Shown here: positions 1-13,526 of the stretch, piece after piece
Numbering within the stretch: position 1 is the stretch's first letter
How the letters are laid out: each line of letters opens with the position of its first letter
UHGV virus genome: UHGV-1806156
Origin: a virus
Reading direction: 5' to 3' (one strand)
Length of the DNA: 13,526 bases
Notes under the pieces: generated by a model
Database searches by the model: none
The model's input: the letters and a program-made list of their open reading frames with translations, nothing else
What the model was told of the DNA's origin: nothing
Program-made: the position numbers and the translations under genes

Positions 1-98
1 TAAGGGAAAAGCTTAACCCACAAATGAAAGCCTAAAGAGCATGAGCGACTCTTTAGGCAATCTGTGTGGGGAACATCGGAGCAGTATGTGAAGTATGA
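1..98. repeat. Left copy of a 98-bp direct repeat (same as 13429-13526)
   Basis: Positions 1-98 match 13429-13526 base for base except one T/C difference (position 54 vs 13482). The repeat runs to both window edges, so its full extent is unknown. Confidence 0.9.
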
Positions 99-437
99 GC
101 AGACTGTGATGATGTGACTTATATCTATGCGTATAACAGCCTCCGCTGTTTACGCTCTTTGTGTGGGTCCGGCGAATGCGTCAGCATGAGGCCCACAATG
201 TGGACCGCTGCCGAAAGCTTGCCAGCGCCGGAAGGAGGCAGCAAAGAGTCTCCCGCGCGCATGTGTGGGCGTATACGTAAGATATACATTCATAAATCCA
301 ATTCTAGGCCCATAAATGGCCTTCTGGCTGCATTAACTAGTGTGAGTAGTGCAATTGCATTACCTGACCTCTAAATCGCGTTAGAATTGATTTTAGAGCG
401 CCTAAGGCAAAAAGTGCTCTCCCTCCCTTGTGGGCCA

Positions 438-467
438 TTGACAATCTTATTGCATAAATGCTATAAG
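438..467 (+). promoter_or_regulatory. Sigma70-like promoter candidate (-35 TTGACA 438-443, 18-bp spacer, -10 TATAAG 462-467)
   Basis: Hexamers read directly; one of five ATTGACAAT-type sites in 437-765. Confidence 0.3.
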
Positions 468-566
468 TGATTTTGGTTTTGACACGGTAGGGGCCATTAA
501 TAATGCTTACCCCTTTGCTGTGGACTTGCTTGTACATATAGCATACCTAAATGATAATAATTCTCA

Positions 567-595
567 TTGACAATTGGTTGACAATATGATAAGAT
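567..595 (+). promoter_or_regulatory. Sigma70-like promoter candidate (-35 TTGACA 567-572, 17-bp spacer, -10 TAAGAT 590-595)
   Basis: Hexamers read directly; a second TTGACA at 578-583 overlaps it. Sits upstream of the sORF at 631. Confidence 0.3.
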
Positions 596-630
596 TATAA
601 ATAGGGGGAGAAACAGATCCGGAGGTCAAT

Positions 631-780
631 GTGGAAATTACTGATGCAATAGCGATCATCAACCTGGCTGTACTGTGGTGCGGTGTTGCCTACATAGCCG
701 GAGTGACTGCAATCGACAATCTTGAAGAAAAAATGATAGATAAATACAAAAAGATTGTTGACAATTTGACGAATGTCTGA
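631..780 (+). CDS. Small ORF, 49 aa, GTG start, predicted single transmembrane helix (VEITDAIAIINLAVLWCGVAYIAGVTAIDNLEEKMIDKYKKIVDNLTNV)
   Basis: GGAGG at 621-625 sits 5 nt before GTG 631, stop TGA at 778-780. Hydrophobic N-terminal stretch. Below the 60-aa cutoff of the ORF track. Confidence 0.3.
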   Translation: MEITDAIAIINLAVLWCGVAYIAGVTAIDNLEEKMIDKYKKIVDNLTNV

Positions 781-786
781 TAAAAT
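758..786 (+). promoter_or_regulatory. Sigma70-like promoter candidate (-35 TTGACA 758-763, 17-bp spacer, -10 TAAAAT 781-786), likely driving the operon starting at 913
   Basis: Near-consensus hexamers with 17-bp spacing, about 125 bp upstream of ATG 913. Confidence 0.45.
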
Positions 787-912
787 ATAAAGCATAGGGT
801 AATTCTCATCATAGTGAATTTCCTTTAGTAGACTGGCGGGGGCTTGTCTTAAGTTCCCGTTTCTTTTTAATCATATATCGCACAGGTTAGTGAGCTGACA
901 GGAGATTGAATC

Positions 913-1128
913 ATGGCTAAAACCGGACCGATAAGCCAGCTGGTAAACTGGACTACTGACGAAATCGTCGAGAACGTGCTTAAAGGTAACTTTCGAAAAA
1001 CTTCCGTTTATGCATTTATTCGTAAACACAAAGGAGAATATCCACACATTGAAGCGGCAATTTTAGAACTGAATCGTCTCCGCCTTGAGCGTGAGCTGGC
1101 TAAATACACCAACAACATTAATAAATAA
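913..1128 (+). CDS. Hypothetical small protein, 71 aa
   Basis: ORF with AGGAGA RBS 7 nt upstream of ATG 913; first gene after a long non-coding region. No recognisable family. Confidence 0.55.
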   Translation: MAKTGPISQLVNWTTDEIVENVLKGNFRKTSVYAFIRKHKGEYPHIEAAILELNRLRLERELAKYTNNINK

Positions 1129-1141
1129 CTGTGGGGGAACT

Positions 1142-2038
1142 ATGGCAAGTAATTACGGGGAGGTTTTTAATCCCCATTTCGAACGCCTCATTCAGTATAC
1201 TTTTGATAAACCAGTTGCAACAACAATTGCTAATAAAAAGACTGGAAAAACAAAAGAAAGATTTAAGTTAGACCTGACGGAGGTTACAATTTATGGAAAA
1301 ATGGCAGGTTTTCATTTAAACGGGCAAGAAATATTTATCTCAGAGCAGACCTTAGCAAAAATATGTGGAGTGAGCGATAGAAAAATCCGTGATTCGATTA
1401 AATCTCTAGAAAATGCCGGGCTTATTTCTAAAGATAATCGGAAAGGCATGTCTAATATTTACAAACTACTAATTACTCCTTCACAGGTTTGCAAAATGTG
1501 TGACGCTCAAGGAATACAACCTATGAGCAATGCAGGTGGTGAAGATAAACAGCCTCAGGAAGCCCCAAAACAAGCCGCACAGCAAGCTAAAAAGGCTAAA
1601 GTAGTGCAATTGCCTACCCAAGACACTAAAGCGCCTCAAATTAACGCTGTTAGTGACAAGCCACGCCGGGGCCGTCCTGTGAAAGATGTAACCGATGGAG
1701 GGTGGATCGCCCTGGGTGAGAGTGAGGCTAAAGGCATAATGCGATCACTGTGGGAAAGCAAATACAAAGATTTAAACAAACGTCGCCCGATCCTTTTGTC
1801 AAAGATTCAGGAGGATTTTTACACCACAGAAGAGGTAAGCCGACATAAAGGGAAAATAGAGGGTGAAATCTGGAAACCGGAAGAATACTGGCATTTAACC
1901 AGACCTGTGTTTATTTTTGCAAATAAGCTTATTGGGATGGGATTTGAAATATTGTTAGATAAAACCTGCGGAGATTATCCCGAAATATTGTGGAGAAATG
2001 TTAGAAAAAATAAAAAAGGCATTTTAGAGTTTAAATAA
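1142..2038 (+). CDS. Putative replication initiator-like protein with winged helix-turn-helix, 298 aa
   Basis: ATG at 1142 preceded by GGGGGA RBS, right after the stop of the 913 ORF; the track's 1085 start is an upstream in-frame extension. The segment FISEQTLAKICGVSDRKIRDSIKSLENAGLISKDNRKG resembles the wHTH of phage and plasmid replication initiators. Function from motif recognition only. Confidence 0.45.
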   Translation: MASNYGEVFNPHFERLIQYTFDKPVATTIANKKTGKTKERFKLDLTEVTIYGKMAGFHLNGQEIFISEQTLAKICGVSDRKIRDSIKSLENAGLISKDNRKGMSNIYKLLITPSQVCKMCDAQGIQPMSNAGGEDKQPQEAPKQAAQQAKKAKVVQLPTQDTKAPQINAVSDKPRRGRPVKDVTDGGWIALGESEAKGIMRSLWESKYKDLNKRRPILLSKIQEDFYTTEEVSRHKGKIEGEIWKPEEYWHLTRPVFIFANKLIGMGFEILLDKTCGDYPEILWRNVRKNKKGILEFK

Positions 2039-2085
2039 AAACACTGATAATCTTATTTTTTACAGTATTCTAAAGGAAATTTAAA

Positions 2086-2232
2086 ATGTATGGCGATTTT
2101 GATTATTACCTGGAAAAGGAAAAATATTTTGAAGATGAACTATCACAACATTTTTCATATTGGGAAGAATATTGTGGTTGGTTAGCTGAAGATCCAGCAG
2201 ATGAAGAAAACGATTCTGACATCCCTTATTGA
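2086..2232 (+). CDS. Small acidic ORF, 48 aa (MYGDFDYYLEKEKYFEDELSQHFSYWEEYCGWLAEDPADEENDSDIPY)
   Basis: ATG 2086 with AAGGAAA RBS about 6 nt upstream, stop TGA 2230-2232. Strongly acidic and aromatic-rich. Below the ORF-track cutoff. Confidence 0.35.
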   Translation: MYGDFDYYLEKEKYFEDELSQHFSYWEEYCGWLAEDPADEENDSDIPY

Positions 2233-2316
2233 TATCCCCAAATAAACTAAATAAATAAACTAAGCACTAGAACTAGATTGATTGCCCTGATCTTTTAAAC
2301 GTTCGGAGAATTAATC

Positions 2317-2805
2317 ATGTTCAAATCTAATCTTTCTGATTCTCAATTCGAAAAACTGGTAGCACTGCAGAAATATCTTCCCAGTGATGATCAACCAACA
2401 CGACAGGCTAAACACTTATTAGTCGAGGGCTTTACCCCTGAATTCGTGGCGGAATATACAGGCGTTAAACTTGATAAAGTCCAAAAACTATATAATGAGT
2501 CCTGGAATCCACGGTGTCGAGTTCCCCTCAGTGTCTATAACGACATAGATAGAGATAAAAATGTCTTCGAAGATCGCCGCCGCAAATCTCTTTTAATGTG
2601 GAATTGTGGGATGAATATTGAAGAGATAGCAAAAGAATTAAAAGTAACCTGCTTTCATATATGGGGCTTGTTGAGTGAAATCCTGCCACGTAAGGAGCTT
2701 AATCAACGTTTGCCTAAGCCCGGTAGTCGTGCTTATCGCGAATTTATATTCATCTACCGCCGCCATAGAAATAAAGTCCAGAAAGCAATGGCCCAGAAAG
2801 CTTGA
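2317..2805 (+). CDS. Putative DNA-binding regulator with two HTH-like segments, 162 aa
   Basis: GGAGA RBS before ATG 2317. Two segments with HTH character: GFTPEFVAEYTGVKLDKVQKL and GMNIEEIAKELKVTCFHIWGLL. Confidence 0.5.
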   Translation: MFKSNLSDSQFEKLVALQKYLPSDDQPTRQAKHLLVEGFTPEFVAEYTGVKLDKVQKLYNESWNPRCRVPLSVYNDIDRDKNVFEDRRRKSLLMWNCGMNIEEIAKELKVTCFHIWGLLSEILPRKELNQRLPKPGSRAYREFIFIYRRHRNKVQKAMAQKA

Positions 2806-2878
2806 GTTTTATCTCTTCGATTTATTTATTTTCGACTCACTTTAACCCCTTCCGGGGCTCTAATTTAAGGAATTCCAA

Positions 2879-3322
2879 ATGTCTCAAATCGCTAAATTAT
2901 TATCCCAGGTTATCAAAGCTATCGACGCTGAAGATTCAAAAGTTCGCCAGGATCTTTTAGATGGCAAGTTTACCAACACCCTGGCATTTACCCGTGACAA
3001 AGAGCACTTCTTAAAACACAGGCATCACGCTTTTCCTGAATGCAAGTCCGCTAATGGTGATGTTTTCTATGTCGATTTGGTGGTTATGGCATGTAGGCTG
3101 TGGATGATTCAGGACCTTATGCGCCAACACGGTGATGATCCTCTTATCAGCATGTGGAACAGCGCCCAGGATGGCTTTGTGATTGCTGCCTTATCCAAAT
3201 CAATGATTGAGGCAGAAGGGGCAAGCCTTCAGAACATGGCAGATCTCTTTGAAATAAGCGTAGGAATGATGCAGACCATGCTCCAAGCTGTCAAACCTCT
3301 CAAACTGGTTAATCTTGATTAA
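2879..3322 (+). CDS. Hypothetical protein, 147 aa
   Basis: AAGGA RBS before ATG 2879; no recognisable family. Confidence 0.55.
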   Translation: MSQIAKLLSQVIKAIDAEDSKVRQDLLDGKFTNTLAFTRDKEHFLKHRHHAFPECKSANGDVFYVDLVVMACRLWMIQDLMRQHGDDPLISMWNSAQDGFVIAALSKSMIEAEGASLQNMADLFEISVGMMQTMLQAVKPLKLVNLD

Positions 3323-3382
3323 GCTATTGATAAATAAGCACTCCCCATTTTTTGGGGGGTGCATCAATGAGAGGATATGCCT

Positions 3383-3766
3383 ATGAATATTGAAGAAATG
3401 ATAGTTGAATTCGAAGAGGGTGATTTCCTGGAAGAAGGGGAGTTTAGTTACTCCCATTTTAAACAGGCGTTATTTAGCAGCGATGATAAACCACACGTTA
3501 GTGATCTTAACGACGATGATTTATGTCGTTGGGTATGCACCCGCTTAAATGAAGATGGAAAGTATACAGGCCAAAACTTTCCAAATCTCTATTTCAAAGC
3601 ACAAACATTTGAGGAAGGGCAAAGAGTGAAAAACCTGGTCGATAAAATGCTGTCAGCCGGATATTTGCATAAAGAATTATTAAATCCTAAAGCTGAAAGC
3701 AAGCGCCATTATATTTTTGTGTGGACTATTGGCGATAAGTGTCCACTAAGACGCAAAGGCAAATGA
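3383..3766 (+). CDS. Acidic protein, 127 aa; possible tail assembly chaperone by position
   Basis: GAGAGGA (3369-3375) is 7 nt before ATG 3383; the track's ATG 3377 is too close to the RBS. Acidic N-terminus and position two genes upstream of the tape measure gene. Function is positional inference only. Confidence 0.4.
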   Translation: MNIEEMIVEFEEGDFLEEGEFSYSHFKQALFSSDDKPHVSDLNDDDLCRWVCTRLNEDGKYTGQNFPNLYFKAQTFEEGQRVKNLVDKMLSAGYLHKELLNPKAESKRHYIFVWTIGDKCPLRRKGK

Positions 3767-3767
3767 T

Positions 3768-4004
3768 ATGAATACCTACGAAAAGATTTATCAAAAACTG
3801 GTTAAGGACTCCGAAGACACGCCCGAAGGGGTGACAGTAGGTCACCTGCCAGAGGCAGCGAAAGAGGGGGCCACCATTATTAAAAGTGGCTCCCACACAG
3901 AAGGCCTCTCAATCGAAGAGCTGGCGGAGAAATATAATATTGATAAAGAGGCCCTGAAAAGGGCTATTTCATTATCAAAATCTTTAAGACAGGGCGAGGT
4001 ATAA
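3768..4004 (+). CDS. Hypothetical protein, 78 aa, translationally coupled between the acidic protein and the tape measure gene
   Basis: Starts 1 nt after the preceding stop and ends 1 nt before ATG 4006. Confidence 0.45.
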   Translation: MNTYEKIYQKLVKDSEDTPEGVTVGHLPEAAKEGATIIKSGSHTEGLSIEELAEKYNIDKEALKRAISLSKSLRQGEV

Positions 4005-4005
4005 A

Positions 4006-6153
4006 ATGGCAATGAAGGAAGTAGCCAGACTAACAAACGTTATTTACTGGGACTCTGATAAATCCTCCTGGCGAAAAGAAGTTAAACGGCTTGAGGATTA
4101 TAAAAAATCCTGGAAGAAAGCTACCGACGATATAGCTAAAGCTGATTTTAAATCTAATCAGGCTGTGCTCAGAACACAAAGAACACGCGCTAAGGTGGAA
4201 GAGCAGATAGCCAGAGCTCAGAGGAAACAACAGGAAGCACAGAAGAAACAACGTGCTCAGGCTGTCAGCCGTCTGACCGGGGGCAACAATGCCGAACTTA
4301 ACTCTATGCGCAAGTTCTACCAACAACAAGCCAGAGAAGCCGCCAGACAACAAAAACTGTTAGATCGTAGTGTTGGAGATGTTCAGCACAGAAAAGCACG
4401 TGTAGGGGCCAACAGTGCACGAATCAGCAGCATGTTTGATGGCTCCCTGGTTGCTCAGTTCCAGGGGCGCATTCAAAGAGTTAATGCTGATTATGCTAAA
4501 GGGGCTATAAACCTGCAGACCTATAATCAGAGGATGGCCCGACTCAGATCTGAAATGAAGATGGCAACAGCCGAAGCCGGAAAATTCCAGAGCAGACTAG
4601 ACAGAGCTGCGGCCGCAGGCTCCAGGCTGCATGACAACCTGGGGAAACTGAATTCCACACTGGGCAAGATAGCCATTGGCCTTACTGCCGCTGGCTGGGG
4701 TGTTCAGCGTGCTGTTAGTGGTGCTATGGGTAGCCTTGCAGATCGCAACAGTGCTTATTTCGGCTTAATGTCACAGAACAAGGATGATAAATCAAAAACT
4801 GATCAGCAGATGGCTTTTATCAAGAACACAGCCTACACCTACGGGATGGATCAGCGTGAGATGGAAGGCGGCTACATGCGCTTTGCTGCAGCTACCCCCA
4901 CCATGAAGGAATCTGATAAGCAGGCTCTCTTTGAGGCTATGGCTATTAAAGGCCGCTCAGTGGGTGCTACTGGCGAGCAACAGAACAGGGCGCTTGTTGC
5001 GGTCCAACAAATGGCTTCAAAAAATAAAGTCATGGCGGAGGAGCTGCGTGGGCAGCTGGCAGAAGCCTTTGCAGGCTCACAACAGGACTTCCAACAGGCC
5101 GCTATTGATGCCGGAATCATCAAAAATACCCAGGAATTCGATAAAGCCCTTAAAGATGGCAAAATCACCCTGGACAAGCTACTTCCTTCCCTAGTGAAAA
5201 TTTGGGGTGCTGCAAAAGAAACTAAAGCTTTTGCTGAATCCATGAAACAGCCAGAAGTAGCAATGCAGCGCATGAAAAACAGCTTTAACGAGCTGGCGAT
5301 TCAGTTTATGGGTGTTGTGGATCCTGCGGATGGCGTTATTAGCTTATCTGAATCTCTGATCTCCATCTTTGAAGACCTCACCACTGATATGGACGGCAGC
5401 GGGAGCGCGGCAAAACAGTTCGGTGAGGCAGTCGGGTCTGCCATGCGTGAGATCATGTATTGGGTAGGCTTCGCTAAGGGATATATTGAGGTCAAGGCTA
5501 AAGAGTTCGGCATGACCGGATCAGAGGTTGGCGAGCTTATCGGGAAACTGGTAGTCGGCTTAGCTGGTCTGAAAGTTATTACCACACTGCTTTCCCCTCT
5601 AACCGGATTTGTTTCACTTGTCACCCAACTGATTTCTCTGATAGGCAAGATTCCAGGTCTGGGCAATCTCGTTAAGGGTGCTGGCGGGGCAGTCGCTGGA
5701 AGCCCAACAACAGCATTAGCCGCTGGCAGTGCCGCAGGTGTGGGTGTTGGTGTCGCTGGCGCACTAGGCGCTAAGACGGTAGGTGAGAAGTTCAGAGGAT
5801 GGATGCAAAGCAAGGCTGATCAGTTCGGGGAGTGGGCTAAATCTAAAGGCCTGCTTAGCGATGAACAGGACGCTATGACCAAACCGGGGGCCTATAACCA
5901 TAGCTACATCAACAAGGGAGCTTCCTTTAATCCATATCCAACCATTAGCCCTTCACGTCCTACTCCTAGCACTGGTACGGCTATTCAGAATGGCGGATAT
6001 CAACCAGTCCAAGTAAATGTAGCCCCACAAGGTGAGATTTCCGGCAAATGGGAGATAACCATCGATGAGGGGGGAATTGCCAGGGTGATCCAGAAGGAAG
6101 TTAGCGATCAGTTGGATTGGAAAGCCACACAGGAATCTAACCAGCTTTTCTAA
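4006..6153 (+). CDS. Phage tail tape measure protein-like, 715 aa
   Basis: Long Q/R/K/A-rich helical N-terminal region, a central segment that reads like a tape-measure domain (AAATPTMKESDKQALFEAMAIKGRSVGATGEQQNRALVAVQQMASKNKVMAEELRGQLAEAF), and a Gly/Ala-rich hydrophobic block (LAGLKVITTLLSPLTGFVSLVTQLISLIGKIPGLGNLVKGAGGAVAG...). Recognised by eye, not by search. Confidence 0.6.
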   Translation: MAMKEVARLTNVIYWDSDKSSWRKEVKRLEDYKKSWKKATDDIAKADFKSNQAVLRTQRTRAKVEEQIARAQRKQQEAQKKQRAQAVSRLTGGNNAELNSMRKFYQQQAREAARQQKLLDRSVGDVQHRKARVGANSARISSMFDGSLVAQFQGRIQRVNADYAKGAINLQTYNQRMARLRSEMKMATAEAGKFQSRLDRAAAAGSRLHDNLGKLNSTLGKIAIGLTAAGWGVQRAVSGAMGSLADRNSAYFGLMSQNKDDKSKTDQQMAFIKNTAYTYGMDQREMEGGYMRFAAATPTMKESDKQALFEAMAIKGRSVGATGEQQNRALVAVQQMASKNKVMAEELRGQLAEAFAGSQQDFQQAAIDAGIIKNTQEFDKALKDGKITLDKLLPSLVKIWGAAKETKAFAESMKQPEVAMQRMKNSFNELAIQFMGVVDPADGVISLSESLISIFEDLTTDMDGSGSAAKQFGEAVGSAMREIMYWVGFAKGYIEVKAKEFGMTGSEVGELIGKLVVGLAGLKVITTLLSPLTGFVSLVTQLISLIGKIPGLGNLVKGAGGAVAGSPTTALAAGSAAGVGVGVAGALGAKTVGEKFRGWMQSKADQFGEWAKSKGLLSDEQDAMTKPGAYNHSYINKGASFNPYPTISPSRPTPSTGTAIQNGGYQPVQVNVAPQGEISGKWEITIDEGGIARVIQKEVSDQLDWKATQESNQLF

Positions 6154-6204
6154 TATTGTGATCAAAATCAATAAGTTAGCCTGACCGGATAAACTCCAGG
6201 CAAG

Positions 6205-6242
6205 AAAAAAGCCCCTAAGTGTTAACAAAGGGGCTCTTCTCC
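6205..6242. terminator. Hairpin terminator between convergent operons (stem AGCCCCT 6210-6216 / AGGGGCT 6229-6235)
   Basis: 7-bp GC-rich stem with 12-nt loop. On the minus strand it is followed by a run of six T (plus-strand A 6205-6210); on the plus strand by a weaker T-rich tract. Confidence 0.5.
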
Positions 6243-6266
6243 GGTATCCTTTTGATGCGGGGCGAA

Positions 6267-6310
6267 CCTGCTAACAAAAATCAACCTCTCGCGAGACTAA
6301 TGTTAGCAGG
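6267..6310. other. Stem-loop with perfect 10-bp stem (CCTGCTAACA / TGTTAGCAGG) whose 24-nt loop carries TCAACCTCTCGCGAGA
   Basis: Inverted repeat read directly. The loop contains the 10-bp palindrome TCTCGCGAGA and matches the leader motif at 10547 and 11089. Confidence 0.4.
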
Positions 6311-6655
6311 TTGCCGGAAGGTAAGTCAACTCCGGCCTATAAACCTTAAAGCGACTATAAAATCGCCCCGCCAATTGTGATGATCCGACCTTTGAGGCGG
6401 GTCCGGTGCCCAGGGGGGTGCAGTGATGCACAAACCAGGCAACGATAAACAGGCTAACAGTGATAGCGGCGCTCTCTCAGCGCACTAAATCCTAACCAGT
6501 CCGGGAAAGAGGCTGGCTCTATCGACCGCTCATGCACGGGACAATGCATACCTGATAAAGGATTCTCACAAGGGACCAATCGCGAGAAAAAGAAGTGGAA
6601 AGGGGCTGATTTGTGGTGTATCACTACGGCCTCAAAAGAACACTATTGTCTTTTT

Positions 6656-7114
6656 TCAGCCTCTCCCAACATTTGACCAGTATTTGATTGCACCGATCAA
6701 ATCATCATAGTGGCGCATTGCATCATTGAAGCCTTTATAGCTTGCCCATTGTGGGGAAACCTTGTTATTGCTGAATTGCCCACTAATCAGGATAGTCTCC
6801 AGAATGTCGGCATATCGCTTACCAATACGCTTTCTGACGGCCTCAGAGCTCCCACCCTTTACGATTGCATTAATCAGGGCTTTTGTGTGTCTCAGGCTCT
6901 CATAGAGCATTGCAGCGTGGGCAGATTCCATAAAGGAGCGCTTAGGCAAATCACCCCACCCCTCAGAGTGGATAGCCGCCAGTGTGGCGTAATTCAGGCC
7001 GCTATAGTGCTTTCCGTCATCCCAGCCAACCGCTACACCTTCCATCTGTGAGAGCTCTTTATGCAGCTTATCCATCATGCGCTTGTCTATGGTGCAACGG
7101 ACTTTCGGACTCAT
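6656..7114 (-). CDS. HK97 gp10-like head-tail (neck) family protein, 152 aa
   Basis: Segment GVAVGWDDGKHYSGLNYATLAAIHSEGWGDLPKRSF fits the pattern I associate with the HK97 gp10 family. GGAG RBS upstream; ATGA overlap with the preceding gene. Confidence 0.45.
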   Translation of the reverse strand: MSPKVRCTIDKRMMDKLHKELSQMEGVAVGWDDGKHYSGLNYATLAAIHSEGWGDLPKRSFMESAHAAMLYESLRHTKALINAIVKGGSSEAVRKRIGKRYADILETILISGQFSNNKVSPQWASYKGFNDAMRHYDDLIGAIKYWSNVGRG

Positions 7115-7914
7115 TTGTTGATCTCCGTGATGTCATCAAGCAACATGTTGGCCTTATCAATCATCGTTTCGTGGAATTCATTCGACACAACAGACTTATC
7201 ACCTGCGGCAATCTTTCCAGCTGCCTCTCCCTGTGCATATTCCCCGCGATGCTTAGCCCTGGTAGATTTCGTAGCAGCATTGCCAGCGTTACTACCCTCT
7301 TTAGCACTGTTAACAGCACCCTTTTGCTGTGTTTTATTCACCTTCTTACTGTTAGTGAAAACTCCGGCATTTTCGACCATCTTCACCTTGAAGGTGCGGA
7401 ATTCTTCAAAGGTGCAATCGATAGTGATGCAGTCACCGGAGGAAGAGCTACGCTTAACTTCACATTTCGTCATGATGAAGTTCTCAAGGAGTCCGGCATC
7501 TTCACTCACCAGGCTAACCAGCTGGCGCTTGTCTCTCATTTCCATAAGTGCCTGAACAGCGGCAGCAGGGCGCATAGATTCACGGGGATTATCTGGATCA
7601 GTGTTCCGGTCGATGTAGTTCTCTTTCCGGATAATGTGAGGGGAAGAGGTAATAATACCCGTAAAGCTGACAGATTTATCTTTAATGACGGCATGGTCTG
7701 ACATGGTGGTGCCATCTTCTACTGCATAGCTCGACTTTTCGACAGGGAACGAATAACGAACATCAGAGATAGAGTCAAAGAAGATAGCCACATTATCGGT
7801 ATAGTTGAAGCCATCCATTATATTTTTGTTTTGTGAATATCCCCCACACATAACAGTGAATGCGGGAGATCTCGACTCAGCTTGTTTTGCAGCTGTCAGA
7901 GCATCACTAGCCAT
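7111..7914 (-). CDS. Hypothetical protein, 267 aa (start placed at the ATG at 7914)
   Basis: Minus ORF 7111..7941 begins at a GTG; the in-frame ATG at 7914 has GGAGG 10 nt upstream. Normal amino-acid composition, unlike the Cys/Ser/Leu-rich plus-strand ORFs it overlaps. Confidence 0.55.
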   Translation of the reverse strand: MASDALTAAKQAESRSPAFTVMCGGYSQNKNIMDGFNYTDNVAIFFDSISDVRYSFPVEKSSYAVEDGTTMSDHAVIKDKSVSFTGIITSSPHIIRKENYIDRNTDPDNPRESMRPAAAVQALMEMRDKRQLVSLVSEDAGLLENFIMTKCEVKRSSSSGDCITIDCTFEEFRTFKVKMVENAGVFTNSKKVNKTQQKGAVNSAKEGSNAGNAATKSTRAKHRGEYAQGEAAGKIAAGDKSVVSNEFHETMIDKANMLLDDITEINK

Positions 7915-8042
7915 AGTAAACATGCCTCCAAATTGGTCCACTTCATGGATTTGGCTAAAGCCAAACCTGCAAAAGATGCAGGCAAAATAGAACTTATCGT
8001 TGCCCTGCGTGAATTCTGATAAAAAGACAGGGCTATCTATCG

Positions 8043-8303
8043 TTATTTTGCAAAACGATTATGCGCATTCAGGGCTTTTTTGCGGTCCTGGGCTTGTTTG
8101 CGTGCAATAAAATGTTCGAAAGTCTCGGCCCAGGTGCATTTATTATATTCACGGTATTTATGCATAGCCTGGCGGCTAACGTCATAGCAGGCGGCAAATG
8201 TGGAGATACGCAGGAATTCCGGCAGATCCTCGTCATCGATATGGATAATATCAAAAGGCACGTCGTCACGGTCGCCGTATAAAACAATTTTCATAAAAGA
8301 CAC
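8043..8303 (-). CDS. Small HTH DNA-binding protein, 86 aa
   Basis: GAGGTG RBS upstream of ATG 8303. HTH-like segment LRISTFAACYDVSRQAMHKY. Role unknown. Confidence 0.5.
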   Translation of the reverse strand: MSFMKIVLYGDRDDVPFDIIHIDDEDLPEFLRISTFAACYDVSRQAMHKYREYNKCTWAETFEHFIARKQAQDRKKALNAHNRFAK

Positions 8304-8327
8304 CTCAAAAACTTAAGACGGGGATAA

Positions 8328-8377
8328 CAAAAAAGGGAAGAGGGAAAGACCTATCCCCGATCTCTCACCTCTTCCCT
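8328..8377 (-). terminator. Hairpin terminator just downstream of the capsid gene (stem AGGGAAGAGG 8334-8343 / CCTCTTCCCT 8368-8377)
   Basis: 10-bp stem followed on the minus strand by a T run (plus-strand A 8328-8333), immediately after the capsid stop at 8384-8386. Confidence 0.45.
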
Positions 8378-8383
8378 TTGCTT

Positions 8384-9418
8384 TTATTTAGCCTTGGCAG
8401 CGGCGGCGGTGTTTTTAACACTCACTTTCACCACAACTTCAGGCATCATGTTCATGAAAGCATAAGAGGATTCAACGAAGATTTCGCGTTTGCCTCTGGA
8501 CTCTTCCATATACATGAAAGCTTCACGTGCAGCGCCGTTTGCCAGCTTCAGGTTGCGAGCGCAAGGGCCGAAAAATTGAGTATAAACGCCCACCATATCG
8601 CCTAACGCATGCGGCTGGAACTGTGGGACTAGATAAGCAGTATTCTCTGGCAGACTATCCATTTGCACCACACGCAGGGCTAAGCCCGGAATGCGGAAGG
8701 TCGGGAAGCCCGGCAGAATATCCTCAGGGAACATCAGACCTTTGTCGGTAATGTTCTGATTGCCGAACAACAGCACTTTACGGAGCAGTTCATCAGTCTG
8801 AATAGCGGTAAACAGTTCAGCACGGCAGAACAGGGTGAAACCACGCAGGGCACGAACGACACCACGCTGTTTAACCTTGCTCAGTGCAACCAGGTCCTGC
8901 AGCTGTTTAAGGATATCTTTAGCTAGATCCACTTCTGAAGTGGTTTGCTGTGCGCCCAGCAGTTCGCACACATTCAGTTCTTTACCCTTGGTGAGGATAA
9001 TTTTGTTCTCAAAGAGAGCAAGCTGGCGTGCTTCTTCGTGGGTCTGGCGTAAGCCTTCGCCAAGCTGAATAACACGACGAGCGGTTACAGACTCTAGATT
9101 CTCTTCGGAATCTTTGCCCGGAACACGGATACCCTGCCAGTCAGAAGGATAAATAGCACTTGATGCGGCAGTGAATGCCATATCACCCGTGCCCGTTTCA
9201 CGCTCATCTGCGGTAATGGTCGCCATCTGTTCACCGTAGCGCGGATACTGACCGAAAGCGGTTTGTTTCACCTGGCGAACTTTGTCATATTCAAATTTAA
9301 AGGTATTGCACAGAGCAGTAGTGTTGAAGATATCCATTGCAGAAATAATCATGTTATCCGGCGGGATATCTTTAATCAGACCACACAGATCGCGAACTTC
9401 GAATTCTTTCTTAGCCAT
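8384..9418 (-). CDS. Major capsid protein, lambda gpE family-like, 344 aa
   Basis: ATG at 9418 with AAGGAGG RBS 8 nt upstream; the track's extension to 9517 has no RBS. N-terminus FEVRDLCGLIKDIPPDN fits the L-x-G-x-[IV]-x-x-x-PP pattern seen in gpE-family capsids. Size (lambda gpE is 341 aa) and a small beta-rich gene directly upstream agree. Confidence 0.6.
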   Translation of the reverse strand: MAKKEFEVRDLCGLIKDIPPDNMIISAMDIFNTTALCNTFKFEYDKVRQVKQTAFGQYPRYGEQMATITADERETGTGDMAFTAASSAIYPSDWQGIRVPGKDSEENLESVTARRVIQLGEGLRQTHEEARQLALFENKIILTKGKELNVCELLGAQQTTSEVDLAKDILKQLQDLVALSKVKQRGVVRALRGFTLFCRAELFTAIQTDELLRKVLLFGNQNITDKGLMFPEDILPGFPTFRIPGLALRVVQMDSLPENTAYLVPQFQPHALGDMVGVYTQFFGPCARNLKLANGAAREAFMYMEESRGKREIFVESSYAFMNMMPEVVVKVSVKNTAAAAKAK

Positions 9419-9429
9419 TTTCAACCTCC

Positions 9430-9765
9430 TTATTGTGCAACACGCAAATCGCCATTGCTGGCAGCAACAACAGCGGCTAAGCCGTCTTTGTCCACATAGG
9501 CCGGATTGATGTAGCAACCTTTGTTCGCAACAACGATAAAGGAATCACCAACTTCAGCACGTTCTACAACCAGCAGCGGAGTTTTATCTGTGTGCGTTGC
9601 TTTAACGAAGGTCTCAACCTCGCCAGCCTCAGTCACCACAACAACAGTGCCAGCCGGAATCTCAGCCTTAACTTTGTTTTTAACTTCAACGTCGCGAATA
9701 CTAAATTGCTCATCTGCGGCGTATGAAATGATGTGTCCGCGTGTGCGGATAGTCATATCTCTCAT
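9430..9765 (-). CDS. Putative head decoration protein (lambda gpD-like), 111 aa
   Basis: AGGTGA RBS before ATG 9765. Small, beta-rich (Val/Thr/Ala/Gly), immediately upstream of the capsid gene as in lambda D-E. Assignment is positional and compositional. Confidence 0.4.
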   Translation of the reverse strand: MRDMTIRTRGHIISYAADEQFSIRDVEVKNKVKAEIPAGTVVVVTEAGEVETFVKATHTDKTPLLVVERAEVGDSFIVVANKGCYINPAYVDKDGLAAVVAASNGDLRVAQ

Positions 9766-10093
9766 TTGATCACCTGCGATTTAAATTAACTCCCCTCAAA
9801 GGGCTCAGGTATAACCTCTCAAACCACGACAGGCTCGGGCCGAAAAGTTATGCCGGAAATCTAAAGGGGGATTGATATAAGGAGAGGGAGATAGCCCCGC
9901 ACCGTCCAAGCGGGGGCTATTCCACATGGGGAAACCAACAACAGTTGGCTGATAGTTCACTGCATGGTTACAGGTTGCTAGAGAGCACTATCACGAAAGG
10001 CACTCCCCCGGATCAGTTCAGGCTGCGGTCACATCAGCGGGGAAATACCTTTCGGGATAGCTACCCACACAGAAAACCCGCAAAAGAAAACTG

Positions 10094-10102
10094 TGTGGAT
10101 AA
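10094..10102 (-). promoter_or_regulatory. DnaA box (TTATCCACA on the minus strand) inside an inverted repeat (CCACACAG 10065-10072 / CTGTGTGG 10091-10098)
   Basis: Exact 9-mer match to the DnaA box consensus, read directly. Confidence 0.35.
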
Positions 10103-10248
10103 CTAGCCCTGTAGGGAGAATAAGGAGAATTAATCGACCACTCTAAGATGATCATGGGTAGTGTTATTTATAAGGCGGCACCGCTACCTGGTCGCCTTTA
10201 CTTTGGAGGAAAATACGGCAAATCACCTTCGCTAAATGATTCACGGTA

Positions 10249-10268
10249 TACTGTATATTATATCAGTA
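10249..10268. promoter_or_regulatory. LexA (SOS) box-like palindrome TACTGTATATTATATCAGTA
   Basis: CTG-N10-CAG architecture with flanking TA and an AT-rich core, as in gammaproteobacterial LexA boxes. Lies in the large intergenic region between the capsid operon and the small-peptide operon. Confidence 0.45.
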
Positions 10269-10546
10269 TTTACTCACATTGTCAACACCCTGATTATATA
10301 AATTCTAATAATTAGCGTAGTAACGGTATTTTCAGACTGCTATCAATCCCATCAATACGTCATCTCATCGCATCTATCATAACTTTTTCATTCGTGATAG
10401 ATATCTTTTGATCAATATCAATGTTTTCCGGGGATTTGCCCGGCTATAGTTCGAATCAAGGAAGGGGAGCATTGATAGAGACACCCAAAGGGGTGACTGA
10501 AAGTCACCTGGCATAGCCAGTGAAAGCACCCAACCGAACAAACAAA

Positions 10547-10564
10547 TCAACTTCTCGCAAAAGG
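10547..10564 (+). promoter_or_regulatory. Conserved leader motif TCAACTTCTCGCAAAAGG, 26 nt upstream of ATG 10573
   Basis: Repeated with the same spacing upstream of ATG 11115 (11089-11107); a third variant sits in the hairpin loop at 6281-6296. Confidence 0.4.
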
Positions 10565-10572
10565 TGATAGTT

Positions 10573-10695
10573 ATGGGTATCAAGAACAGTGCCAGCGCAT
10601 GGCAAAAGGCCAGGTTTCATCACCCACACATTGTTAAGGCAATTGAGGTGGTTGGAGTTTTAGCCCTGATGTTAGCTCTGTGTGTGGAGGTGTGA
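10573..10695 (+). CDS. Small hydrophobic peptide, 40 aa (MGIKNSASAWQKARFHHPHIVKAIEVVGVLALMLALCVEV)
   Basis: AAGGTG RBS before ATG 10573; C-terminal hydrophobic helix. Below the ORF-track cutoff. Confidence 0.35.
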   Translation: MGIKNSASAWQKARFHHPHIVKAIEVVGVLALMLALCVEV

Positions 10696-10696
10696 G

Positions 10697-10777
10697 ATGG
10701 GCAAAGGAGGCAAAGCATTTTTAATAGGTCTGGCTATCCTGGATGTTCTACTAATCATGATTAAGCGGAGTTTATGA
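10697..10777 (+). CDS. Small hydrophobic peptide, 26 aa (MGKGGKAFLIGLAILDVLLIMIKRSL)
   Basis: ATG 10697 starts 1 nt after the previous stop, with AGGTG just upstream. One predicted TM helix and a basic C-terminus. Confidence 0.3.
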   Translation: MGKGGKAFLIGLAILDVLLIMIKRSL

Positions 10778-10796
10778 ACAGCATTGAGAGGAGTTT

Positions 10797-11057
10797 ATGA
10801 CGGGGGCTAAAGATATCAGGAGACTGAGGGAAGAGCTGATAGCTGAAATTAAAACTAAGGCAAAGCAAATGGAGATAGCCGCACAAATGGATGTAGCGGA
10901 ACAGATGTACAAGATGGTTGAGGAGGGAACGCCACGACAGGTTATCGCTAAAACCTTCGGTGTGGGGATCGCCACCGTGCACAGAAGGCTGAAAGCATAT
11001 GCTGACTACCACAATATCGAGAGAAAGGAGGATGGGAGATTCAGGAAAGCTAAATGA
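10797..11057 (+). CDS. Small DNA-binding protein with a Hin/resolvase-type C-terminal HTH, 86 aa, no recombinase catalytic domain
   Basis: GAGAGGAG RBS before ATG 10797. C-terminus EEGTPRQVIAKTFGVGIATVHRRLKA closely matches the Hin invertase HTH; the N-terminus is a short charged helix only. Confidence 0.55.
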   Translation: MTGAKDIRRLREELIAEIKTKAKQMEIAAQMDVAEQMYKMVEEGTPRQVIAKTFGVGIATVHRRLKAYADYHNIERKEDGRFRKAK

Positions 11058-11088
11058 TGTAAACGGTCCAACAGGTTACTAACTTAAT

Positions 11089-11107
11089 TCAACTTCTCGC
11101 AAAGGGG
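11089..11107 (+). promoter_or_regulatory. Second copy of the leader motif (TCAACTTCTCGCAAAGGGG), 26 nt upstream of ATG 11115
   Basis: 15/15 identity with the copy at 10547 over TCAACTTCTCGCAAA, same distance to the start codon. Confidence 0.4.
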
Positions 11108-11114
11108 TACCACT

Positions 11115-11702
11115 ATGAACATTAAAACTATCATTGCAGCCCTCACCATTGCCTTTAGTGCCAACACCGCAGCTATTGATGTAGGGGCCGTAAAAGATGC
11201 ATCTTGTGCTGATAAACTGGCGGCACTTGATGCGGGATTCGATGCACCCCAGGGCTATCAAATGGGGCTATCTCTTAAAAATATTATTCTCCCCATGGAA
11301 TCTGGCGCTTATGTATACGGAGCGATAGGAAAACTGGAGAAGCCGGAAATTGACCTGCAGGGTGTGAGAGCGAAGATCACTAAAAGAAATGAAAGCCTTT
11401 GTGATGTAGCTGAAATAGCTTTCATGTCAGACGATGAAAAATCTATTTTAGTCTTTTGCAAAGATAGCGATGATAATGATCGCTTCTTTAAGATCACCCA
11501 CAACAGGCCAATCTCTTTCTACTCTAATGCTACTATGGGCGCGGGTATGCAGTGGCTGAAGAGAGCTAAATTAACTGAGATCGACATTGAAAAAGAGGCC
11601 AATGCAGGCAGTTATGGATTCTGGAAAGGCTGGACTAAATACACGTTCCAACAATGCGGCATCGATAGTCAGGCCTACGACAACGGATTTTGGTTTTTCT
11701 AA
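11115..11702 (+). CDS. Secreted or outer-membrane protein with N-terminal signal peptide, 195 aa
   Basis: N-terminus MNIKTIIAALTIAFSANTAA has the basic/hydrophobic/A-x-A shape of a Sec signal peptide. C-terminus ends in aromatics (GFWFF), as many outer-membrane beta-barrels do. No family recognised. Confidence 0.55.
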   Translation: MNIKTIIAALTIAFSANTAAIDVGAVKDASCADKLAALDAGFDAPQGYQMGLSLKNIILPMESGAYVYGAIGKLEKPEIDLQGVRAKITKRNESLCDVAEIAFMSDDEKSILVFCKDSDDNDRFFKITHNRPISFYSNATMGAGMQWLKRAKLTEIDIEKEANAGSYGFWKGWTKYTFQQCGIDSQAYDNGFWFF

Positions 11703-11722
11703 CCTACTAAGTTAATCCCGCC

Positions 11723-11750
11723 AGGGGGCCATCACGGCCCCTTTTTATTT
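11723..11750 (+). terminator. Rho-independent terminator after the signal-peptide gene
   Basis: GC-rich stem GGGGGCC (11724-11730) / GGCCCC (11736-11741) with 5-nt loop, followed by TTTTTATTT. Confidence 0.55.
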
Positions 11751-11800
11751 ATCCCCTATTTAACCCCTATTTAATGGGTATTTAATGCCTATTTATTGAT
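11746..11800. repeat. Five tandem 11-bp units of form TATTTAANNNN (helically phased A/T tracts)
   Basis: TATTTATCCCC, TATTTAACCCC, TATTTAATGGG, TATTTAATGCC, TATTTATTGAT read directly; an 11-bp period suggests bent DNA or phased binding sites. Confidence 0.5.
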
Positions 11801-13063
11801 TTAATCCGTTTTATGCCACAACCGCCCGGTTGACAGAGTAAGATAGAGTGTGTAACCCTCTTTCGTAATACCAATAAAATCAATAGTTTAGCTCAATTGG
11901 CCTTTTCTCTATTTTTGTCAAATTTAACATACCCTCAAAAACTGCAAAATCTGGCTGCAAGATTATCTGCAGCTGGATTTCTTGCGCCTCAATTTGTGGT
12001 ATCACCCTGACTAGTTTGTGCATAAATTGAACAGTTTTTAACATTTCCTCCTCACCTGGTAACCACACAAAAAGCTAAAAACGAGGCACAGATAATCTTA
12101 GAGGCCTGTTTTCTTGTTATCACTCTGGTAACGTCGTAGAAGTGATTTTGATGAAAGATGACCTACCCTATTACACCCCCATTTTTTGTTATCACAATTG
12201 CATCCTGTGCGGTGTATGGCTATGTGCTGAAAGCGGTCTTATGTGTGGGTGTCAGAAATATCCATTAGCGGTATTAATACCCGTCGGAGATTCGTCTGAG
12301 GTGCCAGGCAGGCGCTCCCCCACCTCCCTTTTTTCTTCTAACAATTCTCAAATATCACACCACTGCCCACCACGTTGCTATTATGTTAATTCTTAAGCTT
12401 TGCTGTATGTTGTGCACATTATTTATTCAGGTGGCTGTACGTAAATTCTGTGCCCACTGATCATGATTTTTAAATCAGATTTTGTAGTGCGCTTTATTAG
12501 TGTAGATAAGATCTATTATGTTAAATGCATCTCTCTCAACACTTAAAATCAATGACTTAGAGGTTAGGATGCACTAACACCCCACACAGCACATTAGACA
12601 TATAGATGTCTATACCCCACATTTTTGATTGTTTTGTAGTCATTCCCCTGATCATTTAACCAGTATAGTTTGCTCCCTGCAGACCACAAAATCGGAATTT
12701 ACATCTGATTAACATAATCTGTTAGCATGATCACCATTACCCACACAACAATAACCACATGTAAGCCTCTTCAGGCAATTTATCGGCGTGTTGGTGTGAA
12801 CAGTCTTTCATGTTCTTTATGTATTCATTGTCCTGTGTGAGGGAAGGATGGACTGCCCCAGGGGCCATACTTATGATGCCCGGTCAACATACCTGTCGAT
12901 AAAATCAAAGGGTGTTGATCTGCATATTTCCCACACATGAGAGGAAATCAAAGCAAAGAGAGAGGAGAGAGGTTTGTTAGTCAAAATAGGTCAATAAGGG
13001 TGTATTTCCACACAGACATGATGAGATAACCTGTCGGTATTTCCTACAACTCTTGCACATACC

Positions 13064-13341
13064 CCGGAAGATTTTTCCGGTGTCTCCCACCTGTGAAGAA
13101 TTTTCACACCTGTAAATCCATACAGCACGGTAAAAACTACCGCACCACCTGTGAAAATATTTTACTACTCCCTTTAGTCATACCCCTTTCAGTCATACTC
13201 AGGCACCACACCCCGGTAAATATTTCCCTACCACCCCGGAGAATTTCTCCGGTGTCCAAGCTGTATCCAATACATACCCCGGAAAATTTCTCCGCACTAC
13301 TACGGAAGATTTCTCCGGTGTACCCCGGAAGATTTCTCCGA
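13064..13341. repeat. Iteron-like array of at least 8 copies of a 17-bp quasi-palindrome (consensus about CCGGARRATTTCTCCGG)
   Basis: Copies at 13064-13080, 13236-13252 (perfect palindrome CCGGAGAATTTCTCCGG), 13279-13295, 13302-13318 and 13325-13341, the last three spaced exactly 23 bp apart. Related variants at about 13094-13108, 13150-13164 and 13214-13226. Confidence 0.6.
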
Positions 13342-13428
13342 CTAATAAATAAAGTAATAGACCACACAATAGATCCCCCCTAACCCCCAAGGGGAATGGG
13401 GAGGGATCAGAGAGTGGGGAAGGTTTTC

Positions 13429-13526
13429 TAAGGGAAAAGCTTAACCCACAAATGAAAGCCTAAAGAGCATGAGCGACTCTTCAGGCAATCTGTGTGGGGA
13501 ACATCGGAGCAGTATGTGAAGTATGA
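13429..13526. repeat. Right copy of the 98-bp direct repeat
   Basis: Matches 1-98 with one mismatch (C at 13482 vs T at 54). Confidence 0.9.

Follow-up and report, generated by a model that had tools for sequence, protein, structure and literature searches.

All PLEs, the satellites of phage ICP1, encode a tape measure protein (TMP), and most of them a hub, plus a chaperone; TMP, chaperone and hub are 20, 20 and 41% identical to those of ICP1 (PMC11838301). Mass spectrometry and western blots of PLE particles show that the satellite's TMP and hub replace those of ICP1, and the tails are 10 nm shorter, as the length of the TMP predicts (PMC11838301). The Vibrio plasmids PISP and cf-PISP have been proposed as satellites, PISP with a capsid gene of the PF03864 type (bioRxiv 10.1101/2025.10.10.681744), and the EPIP satellites of Mycolicibacterium carry a capsid protein and a TMP in about 11 kb, giving smaller heads and an altered tail length (bioRxiv 10.64898/2025.12.02.691453). 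A review from 2025 recognises one demonstrated plasmid satellite only, that of an inovirus. The subject of the present analysis is a viral stretch of 13,526 nt, UHGV virus genome UHGV-1806156 (the window, by which the whole stretch is meant), which corresponds to a small circular plasmid of E. coli with genes for a capsid, a TMP, a baseplate hub and a neck protein. On balance, its sequence makes it likely to be a satellite of rV5-like virulent myophages (Vequintavirus), and by analogy it would work most like a combination of the PLE tail core, the capsid of cf-PICI and PISP elements and the lifestyle of the Vibrio satellite plasmids.

The satellite reading is the best supported one because it brings together an autonomous plasmid, a small number of virion genes, purifying selection on those genes, their homology to Vequintavirus and two short elements shared with these phages. 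An earlier annotation made from the letters of the window alone (the sequence-only reading) had left the choice between a satellite and a phage-plasmid; the former stands, while a complete temperate phage-plasmid does not fit an element with only five structural genes in 13.4 kb. Both the hub gene and the Vequintavirus link had been overlooked there.

The window consists of one 13,428-bp circle followed by an overlap of 98 nt:

1-98 = 13429-13526, no strand: circularisation overlap, a direct repeat, 99% identical, with one mismatch (position 54, T/C)

The complete circular plasmid L007 is colinear with the window across this junction, at 98.4%, and for that reason the repeat pair is taken as the circularisation overlap; the sequence-only reading had rightly seen the repeats but had placed the element between them, whereas they are the overlapping ends of a circle whose junction is unbroken in L007. 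By megablast, at 92-96% identity over 81-92% of its length, the window matches five PLSDB plasmids and is present in seven of 5,426 complete E. coli genomes, each copy being a plasmid of 13.2-13.7 kb and none of them chromosomal; a more sensitive blastn search of the same genomes with the structural region as query returned the same seven plasmids and nothing further. Asked whether it is integrated or episomal, the unit is thus episomal in these genomes, and the proviso attached to the sequence-only reading, that the window might be simply a piece of an ordinary full-length prophage, does not apply to an autonomous circular plasmid with no chromosomal copy. Many draft assemblies also carry the plasmid family. 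The exact capsid protein occurs in 138 index blocks of public assemblies, on contigs of 10-20 kb in 117 cases, on shorter ones in 21 and on longer ones in none. The plasmid was carried by isolates from humans, cattle, chicken and feral pig, the countries being Chile, China, Japan, South Africa and the USA; mobility typing in PLSDB lists the plasmids as non-mobilizable. No species-representative genome has the capsid family, and a search of IMG/VR gave two distant loci only. In strain E275a the assembly ends with the 13-kb plasmid, and the neighbouring replicons have no phage genes, one of them being an ordinary F-type toxin plasmid and the other the chromosome of a different strain.

Sixteen plasmids of the family measure between 13,277 and 13,887 bp although their replication initiator (Rep), iteron and cargo modules have been swapped, and we infer that so narrow a range would fit a packaging size limit. 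Eight of the plasmids have an identical gene order. Protein identity across plasmids is 93-100% for neck, hub, orf86, capsid, orf111, orf147 and orf129, 71-97% for TMP and 30-99% for Rep, while four of seven plasmids have another gene in place of orf195. One record, L002 (NZ_CP043822.1, p3RM10740, 39,610 bp), is a head-to-tail trimer of 13,532 + 13,554 + 12,524 bp in which one unit has broken TMP, hub and capsid genes; this may be a genuine multimer or an artefact of long-read assembly. Another, L005 (NTNY01000053.1, a contig of 30,105 bp), is a derivative of the plasmid with strA/strB, a tetR-type gene and an insertion sequence near the TMP/neck junction; the plasmid family can acquire resistance genes.

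The structural genes lie in two convergent operons, with the TMP gene at the end of the rightward one and the others in a leftward head/tail operon in the order orf111, capsid, orf86, hub, neck:

10257-10285, minus strand: promoter of the leftward head/tail operon, a perfect sigma-70 consensus (TTGACA-17-TATAAT with TG, 12/12), with a leader of about 490 nt
9430-9765, minus strand: orf111, directly upstream of the capsid gene, a decoration or scaffold candidate by position only
8384-9418, minus strand: major capsid protein, 344 aa, lambda-gpE-type HK97 fold (phrog_29 major head protein, 3.6e-21)
8043-8303, minus strand: orf86, a small protein between capsid and hub, 93-99% conserved, with a homologue in the same position in L014
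7111-7941, minus strand: Dit-like baseplate hub (PF21821, 7e-25; phrog_5197, 3.7e-107)
6656-7114, minus strand: Neck1/tail-completion protein, 152 aa (phrog_222, 7.9e-29)
4006-6153, plus strand: tape measure protein, 715 aa (TMP_3, 7.6e-13; phrog_5255, 4.5e-184)

These matches confirm the capsid, neck and TMP genes that the sequence-only reading had named, the first of them also by profile matches to solved capsid proteins, including Phi92_gp124. Relatives of the capsid protein carry PF03864 (Phage_cap_E), and they are few: an exhaustive search of 1.84 billion proteins found only 30 representative clusters. The two nearest clusters, at 43% and 30% identity, are on metagenomic contigs, both of which share the order small open reading frame (ORF), capsid, small ORF, hub, with the neck gene next in one of them. 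To our knowledge, no ordinary tailed phage has the hub gene beside the capsid gene. Purifying selection acts on all the structural genes, with dN/dS values of 0.04 (neck), 0.08 (hub), 0.11 (capsid and orf111 alike) and 0.13 (TMP). This selection, and the retention in distant relatives of an order that is not that of phages, argue for a conserved, selected subset of genes and not a decaying remnant. The hub carries the PGAP label phage baseplate protein (255-267 aa). Within the TMP gene, the segment 5601-6000 (residues ~532-665, in the C-terminal part) is hypervariable, so much so that it aligns at the nucleotide level in only one of the 16 plasmids; the hub and neck genes beside it are near-invariant.

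For orf111, which the sequence-only reading had offered as a decoration protein, the position next to the capsid gene holds good, but its identity as such finds no backing in a family or PDB match (searches of Pfam, PHROGs and PDB). It is kept together with the capsid gene in L014 (46%) and in L015, and it aligns with the 119-aa ORF upstream of the capsid gene of L016, one of the integrated islands discussed below, with an hhalign probability of 84%.

Four hidden Markov model libraries (Pfam, PHROGs, NCBIfam and PADLOC), used as the sequence-only reading had proposed for confirming or denying terminase, portal and integrase, matched no ORF in the window to any of these three, nor to protease, sheath, tube, fibre or lysis functions, and the unassigned ORFs are all too short for a large terminase or portal. 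The list of missing functions given in that reading (large terminase, portal, protease, tail tube, baseplate, lysis genes, integrase) is upheld except for the baseplate, which is represented by the Dit-like hub gene with its PF21821 domain.

Vequintavirus comprises the rV5-like phages, virulent myophages of 137 kb. The window was compared with 50,697 phage records, with the complete genome of phage naam (MN850630) as reference. Megablast against these records found no DNA-level relative of the window, and by tblastn the best matches of TMP and capsid are Vequintavirus-type myophages of 135-140 kb such as FV3 and rV5. In naam the counterparts are as follows:

Neck protein against naam_25 (also 152 aa): 45% identity, 1e-34
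Hub against naam_32 (the gene right after the phage TMP): 49% identity, 4e-60
TMP against naam_31 (778 aa): 26% identity, 1e-19
Capsid against naam_22: 24% identity, 5e-10

Homologues of the hub are present in 244 of the 50,697 records; among the matches listed, they belong to Vequintavirinae-like phages of about 120-170 kb, and the closest among those listed are E. coli Vequintavirus phages, at 49-51%. All four structural proteins (hub, neck, TMP and capsid) thus have their nearest phage homologues in Vequintavirus. As far as such comparisons go, this link shows relatedness and co-residence, not exploitation.

Two short non-coding elements connect plasmid and phages at the nucleotide level:

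10475-10526, plus strand: Element A, a two-hairpin insertion element of about 50 nt, with a second copy at 3815-3865
198-259, plus strand: Element B, 62 nt, non-coding, 85% identical to naam 4752-4813

Element A is 90% identical to naam 100064-100115, which lies within a gene-free region of 2.5 kb, and is present in about 39 other Vequintavirus genomes as well. Among the plasmids it is variably present at one exact site, and within orf78 it is inserted in frame (51 nt). In this it behaves as a mobile insertion. It is absent from the E. coli chromosomes searched, and outside the plasmids it was found only in Vequintavirus phages. A further copy sits inside the Rep gene of one plasmid (L011, 2752-2801). 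Element B, carried by nine of the 16 plasmids, gave 121 matches; 120 of them are Vequintavirus records, each with one copy of the element at 82-87% identity, and the last is weak and lies outside Element B. Its 6-bp stem shows three pair differences between plasmid and phage, all of them compensatory, and is 100% paired, with none in slid controls; the element is probably structured, as RNA or as DNA. The phage copy has an in-frame stop, which speaks against a coding role. The covarying stem was not recovered when three Element B sequences were folded with RNAalifold, and the minimum free energy folds of single sequences disagree, so that it is the stem itself that is claimed and not the whole fold. 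A match to Element B in L021 was set aside as a chance match in GC-rich coding DNA. In the phage, Element B adjoins palindromic repeats and an AT-rich stretch. Nucleotide identities of 85-90% in these elements, set against protein identities of 24-49%, point to recent exchange or to shared constraint, and either would mean that the plasmids and Vequintavirus phages meet in the same cells.

Two other stretches of the plasmid are conserved without coding for a recognised protein:

6154-6655, no strand: intergenic region between the convergent operons, the most conserved part of the plasmid
11800-13000, no strand: conserved stretch of 1.2 kb without a supported gene, 89-98% column conservation, 93.8% mean identity

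In the first, only 16 of 502 sites (3%) are variable, against values of 12.8% for the capsid gene and about 20% for intergenic DNA elsewhere; mean identity is 98.6%, and folding z-scores of -3.8 and -4.8 put both strands far ahead of shuffled controls. By these features it is the best candidate for a packaging (pac/cos) site or a regulatory non-coding RNA. A minus-strand terminator lies within it, near 6205. In the second, the candidate ORFs are broken in some plasmids and third-position bias is absent.

How the plasmid would act as a satellite can be sketched from its gene content. In a plasmid-bearing cell infected by an rV5-like phage, the capsid protein of the plasmid, perhaps with orf111, would build a shell sized for about 13 kb on the portal of the helper; the plasmid's TMP, hub and neck proteins would substitute for the helper's, giving a chimeric contractile tail; and the helper terminase would fill the small shell with plasmid DNA. 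The resulting particles would transduce the plasmid to new cells, with a reduced yield of phage. That the plasmid's TMP sets tail length we infer with due modesty: it has 715 aa compared with 778 in naam (about 8% shorter), and at 1.6 Å per residue (PMC11838301) the 63 residues missing relative to naam would make the tail about 10 nm shorter. The sizes are in keeping with such a scheme, both those of the 16 plasmids, 13,277-13,887 bp, and that of an integrated cousin, 12,962 bp, and so is the spread of the family over five continents and among human, cattle, pig and chicken isolates though it is typed as non-mobilizable.

A number of points weigh against this reading. Packaging and transduction of the plasmid are deduced from its sequence only. 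No scaffold or protease gene was recognised in the window, neither a small terminase, though one may be present, nor a recognisable pac/cos site was found, and the region 6154-6655 has no similarity to phage naam and no Rfam match, mimicry of a phage pac site not being found. Both structural operons have promoters of the sigma-70 type and not evident phage late promoters. Not every plasmid has Elements A and B, which for that reason cannot be essential. The capsid and TMP are just 24-26% identical to those of the helper, so that co-assembly with its portal, scaffold and tube is not assured; no sequenced phage matches closely, and the true helper may on that account be an unsampled relative. 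Finally, a strict size limit set by a small capsid would bar the spread of the 30-kb resistance derivative.

Set beside the PLEs, the plasmid shares with them a strictly virulent contractile-tailed helper (ICP1 for the PLEs; for the plasmid such a helper is proposed from the genes), a TMP and a hub of its own at low identity to the phage's (20 and 41% in PLE, 26 and 49% against naam in the plasmid), its own Rep/origin module and a conserved non-coding component, the RNA SviR in PLE and the ultra-conserved structured non-coding region in the plasmid. The PLEs differ in being integrated by a large serine recombinase and in measuring about 18 kb, whereas the plasmid has no recombinase match; in using the ICP1 capsid together with a remodelling scaffold, TcaP, whereas the plasmid has its own capsid and neck genes; and in their tail assembly chaperone, which was not identified in the plasmid, where orf129 and orf78 hold the expected position. 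PISP and cf-PISP resemble it as circular episomes of 11-16 kb with plasmid replication and capsid genes and without tail tube or fibres, and the plasmid, like PISP, has no integrase and a capsid of the PF03864 type. PISP, however, has a head protease, a small terminase and a merR-like regulator, and cf-PISP a portal, protease, adaptors and terminases, none of which was matched in the plasmid; both have parA, where neither parA nor another partition gene was found in the element, both are without TMP, hub and neck, and both are reported from Vibrio only.

The EPIPs are alike in combining a major capsid protein and a TMP in one small element, but their genes include a serine integrase, a small terminase, a scaffold, a head-tail adaptor and a stopper and no hub, they are not plasmids, and they depend on a siphovirus prophage as helper, in actinobacteria. 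The cf-PICIs, of similar size, likewise make a small capsid of their own and take the remaining virion from the helper, but are defined by integrase, portal, protease, head-tail connector/adaptor and terminase, none of them matched in the plasmid. P4, at about 11.6 kb, is likewise a satellite found in E. coli; it can persist as a plasmid and is packaged in small capsids; unlike the plasmid it has no capsid or tail protein and resizes the P2 capsid by Sid, and it has an integrase, the alpha primase and a temperate helper. Homologues of Sid, Psu, Delta and alpha were not found in the plasmid with Pfam and PHROGs.

Three islands in E. coli chromosomes, L016, L017 and L036, are also about 13 kb long; they contain iterons and a tyrosine integrase gene and are bounded by direct repeats. 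L016 (88-13083) measures 12,962 bp between 34-bp direct repeats that resemble the 3' end of a tRNA, and L036 (3427092-3441712) is in the chromosome of RM10740, a strain that also carries the plasmid. All three are colinear with the plasmid over an O-like Rep, an orf162-like gene, an ORF of 127-142 aa, the TMP, an ORF of 114-119 aa and the capsid, with 28-34% identity to the plasmid in orf162 and 24-25% in the capsid; they differ in having an integrase and a single-strand gene layout and in being without a hub or neck gene. From their sequences they are distant integrated cousins of the plasmid.

Four other accounts of the plasmid have to be weighed. In the first, it is a defence plasmid, never packaged itself, whose diverged capsid, TMP, hub and neck are dominant-negative decoys that poison the assembly of rV5-like phages. 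Proteins homologous to Vequintavirus parts yet diverged from them would suit this role, the consensus sigma-70 promoters would permit expression without a helper, and the hypervariable region of the TMP fits an arms race; defences that interfere with assembly are indeed known (PMC11364771 and PMC10884400; for Rta, PMC11838301). Four or five full-length structural proteins under strong purifying selection are nevertheless more than the known interference systems need, the tight range of 13.3-13.9 kb in spite of module swaps points to a packaging constraint, and a worldwide non-mobilizable plasmid needs a route of transfer. PADLOC gave no match. Known satellites, moreover, both interfere and transfer, so that interference is partly nested in the satellite reading; as a full account of the plasmid we consider it unlikely.

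According to the second, also improbable, the plasmid is a satellite or defective partner of an unsampled helper (for example a temperate phage or phage-plasmid that is a distant relative of Vequintavirinae), and the similarity to rV5 reflects shared ancestry with occasional recombination. The best protein identities of just 24-51% would allow this, as would the dispensability of Elements A and B in some plasmids, and the chromosomal cousins in E. coli, with integrase, TMP and capsid, are typical of satellites of temperate phages. On the other hand, no closer structural module was found in 5,426 complete E. coli genomes, even by distant blastn, and no closer phage among the 50,697 records; PLE proteins are likewise only 20-41% identical to those of a proven helper; and Elements A and B, 85-90% identical to Vequintavirus and absent from E. 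coli chromosomes, require recent co-residence in one cell.

A third account, which we regard as very improbable, has a cryptic plasmid with decaying leftovers of a phage or phage-plasmid and no current phage-related function. Many of the ORFs have no known function, about 4 kb is without a supported gene, and one record is the odd trimer with broken genes; but across more than 16 plasmids the structural genes are, with few exceptions, unbroken, at dN/dS 0.04-0.13, the gene set and its order are kept in relatives down to 30% capsid identity, and non-coding regions are highly conserved too. That the window might be only part of a multipartite phage, or have been cut from a larger prophage, while co-resident replicons hold the other virion genes and complement what it is without, is barely credible and largely refuted by complete circular plasmid records with a continuous junction sequence, by the F-type toxin plasmid next to it in E275a, by carrier genomes that hold no related structural DNA elsewhere and by the absence of a chromosomal copy.

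If the plasmid is a satellite of rV5-like phages, the family may, tentatively, be the first satellite of Vequintavirus and, for Enterobacteria, the first to live on a plasmid and exploit a strictly virulent tailed phage. Its virion would be doubly chimeric, with a small capsid shell of its own and with its own tail core (TMP, hub, neck) set into the sheath, tube, baseplate and fibres of the helper, and it would swap structured non-coding elements with that helper; together with the integrated cousins it would form a class of capsid-plus-tape-measure satellites. No paper naming these plasmids or any Vequintavirus satellite was found in the literature. The sequence-only reading had gone further, knowing of no satellite with both a TMP and a capsid gene, a claim now dated: EPIP has both, PLE has a TMP and the Vibrio satellite plasmids have a capsid. 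Both TMPs of satellites (in PLE and EPIP) and plasmids acting as satellites (PISP and cf-PISP) were already reported in 2025, and the claim to novelty is narrowed to that extent. In the SatelliteFinder models of PICI and cf-PICI, tail genes count as forbidden components, and the plasmid, with its TMP and hub, falls outside the cf-PICI definition on this count as well; such a rule would explain how elements of this kind escaped the census, and if the satellite reading is true, detection rules barring tail genes would overlook the whole group.

Phages of the rV5 type are in wide use, and widely proposed, as agents against E. coli, O157 among them. Should the satellite reading hold, a resident plasmid that hijacked or blocked such phages would alter host range, phage yield and gene transfer in therapy and biocontrol. 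It would also supply a transfer route for a worldwide 'non-mobilizable' E. coli plasmid able to gain resistance genes, as in the 30-kb strAB/tet derivative. Chimeric tails encoded by a satellite and satellite plasmids would both be extended beyond Vibrio and joined in one element, and a therapeutically relevant coliphage group would have its first satellite, plasmid-borne and substituting capsid and tail core alike.

The remaining genes belong to the replicon and the rightward operon, which runs orf71, Rep, orf162, orf147, orf129, orf78, TMP, and to a region beyond the head/tail promoter:

567-595, plus strand: second promoter-like site of the rightward operon (promoter scan)
758-786, plus strand: promoter of the rightward operon, sigma-70-like, 11/12 matches, with TG (promoter scan)
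913-1128, plus strand: orf71, small conserved protein, 66-100% conserved, dN/dS 0.06
1085-2038, plus strand: replication initiator with a winged helix-turn-helix (HTH), lambda-O-like N-terminal domain (HTH_36, 2.5e-7)
2317-2805, plus strand: orf162, predicted double-HTH DNA-binding protein (AlphaFold model, pLDDT 78)
2879-3322, plus strand: orf147, 95-99% conserved, dN/dS 0.07
3377-3766, plus strand: orf129, just upstream of TMP, in the position of a tail assembly chaperone (position only)
3768-4004, plus strand: orf78, small HTH-like protein with weak HTH matches, which contains the second copy of Element A (3815-3865, 51 nt) in frame
10797-11057, plus strand: HTH_7-type protein, 86 aa (PF02796, 3.6e-6), 93-100% conserved, dN/dS 0.12
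11115-11702, plus strand: orf195, in a variable cargo slot, with a signal-peptide-like N-terminus and a terminator at 11723-11743 after the gene
13060-13349, plus strand: iterons of the replication origin, five copies with a 23-nt period (repeat family D2)

The Rep ORF also matches replication-initiator PHROGs (phrog_270 at 1.1e-10, and O-like families), and its true start is likely the ATG at 1142. With HTH_36, phrog_270 and the five iterons, the replicon that the sequence-only reading had described is borne out. At the nucleotide level the iteron sequence of the window is present in only three of the 16 plasmids; other Rep alleles go with other iteron sequences at unchanged spacing, so that a winged-HTH initiator and direct-repeat iterons that co-vary with its allele mark this as an iteron-type theta plasmid. 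No tRNA was found in the window, and neither the window nor the phage regions that match it gave an Rfam match.

Neither orf71 (profile libraries) nor orf147 (Pfam, PHROGs, NCBIfam, PADLOC) has a family match. The model of orf162 shows two HTH units and a long C-terminal helix, and the protein is 28-34% identical to the ORFs directly after the Rep genes of L016, L017 and L036; it may be a regulator or serve packaging specificity. It was considered as a small terminase, which found no support: the model is of the double-HTH kind, Foldseek gave no significant match in PDB or BFVD, and PDB profiles yielded one short fragmentary match (8vd6_A 'CAP REPEAT', no stretch of which passes alone), weak matches to HTH regulators and none to a terminase. 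Nor could orf129 be accepted as a tail assembly chaperone, having no match in Pfam or PHROGs, no homologues outside the family, a null result in hhalign, no similarity to naam_30 and an AlphaFold model with pLDDT 44 (unusable). Other plasmids have 61-aa versions of orf78 without the Element A insert. The 86-aa HTH_7 protein is a candidate regulator, judged by its domain. In the cargo slot, orf195 has no defence or family match in Pfam, PHROGs, PADLOC or NCBIfam, and L001, L010 and L027 have unrelated genes of 173-239 aa there.

The promoter regions of the two operons, 744-805 and 10238-10299, are homologous in inverted orientation (I1; 62 nt, 71%), and the 26 nt at 810-835, just past the first promoter, are complementary to 2063-2088, just past the Rep gene; shared operators or long-range pairing may account for these similarities. 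Around the terminator of orf195, 11725-11764 is 85% identical over 41 nt to the terminator region at naam 55171-55210, a weak third stretch shared with the phage. The terminator is followed at 11740-11800 by A/T-rich repeats of the TATTTAA type with a period of about 11 nt, which L011 has likewise and which could serve DNA bending, partition or the binding of a host factor. Two short ORFs of about 39 and 26 codons with hydrophobic segments can be seen by eye at 10570-10770, upstream of the HTH_7 gene (the coordinates are approximate); the motif AAATCAACTTCTCGCAAAAGG is repeated ahead of the first of them and also precedes orf195.

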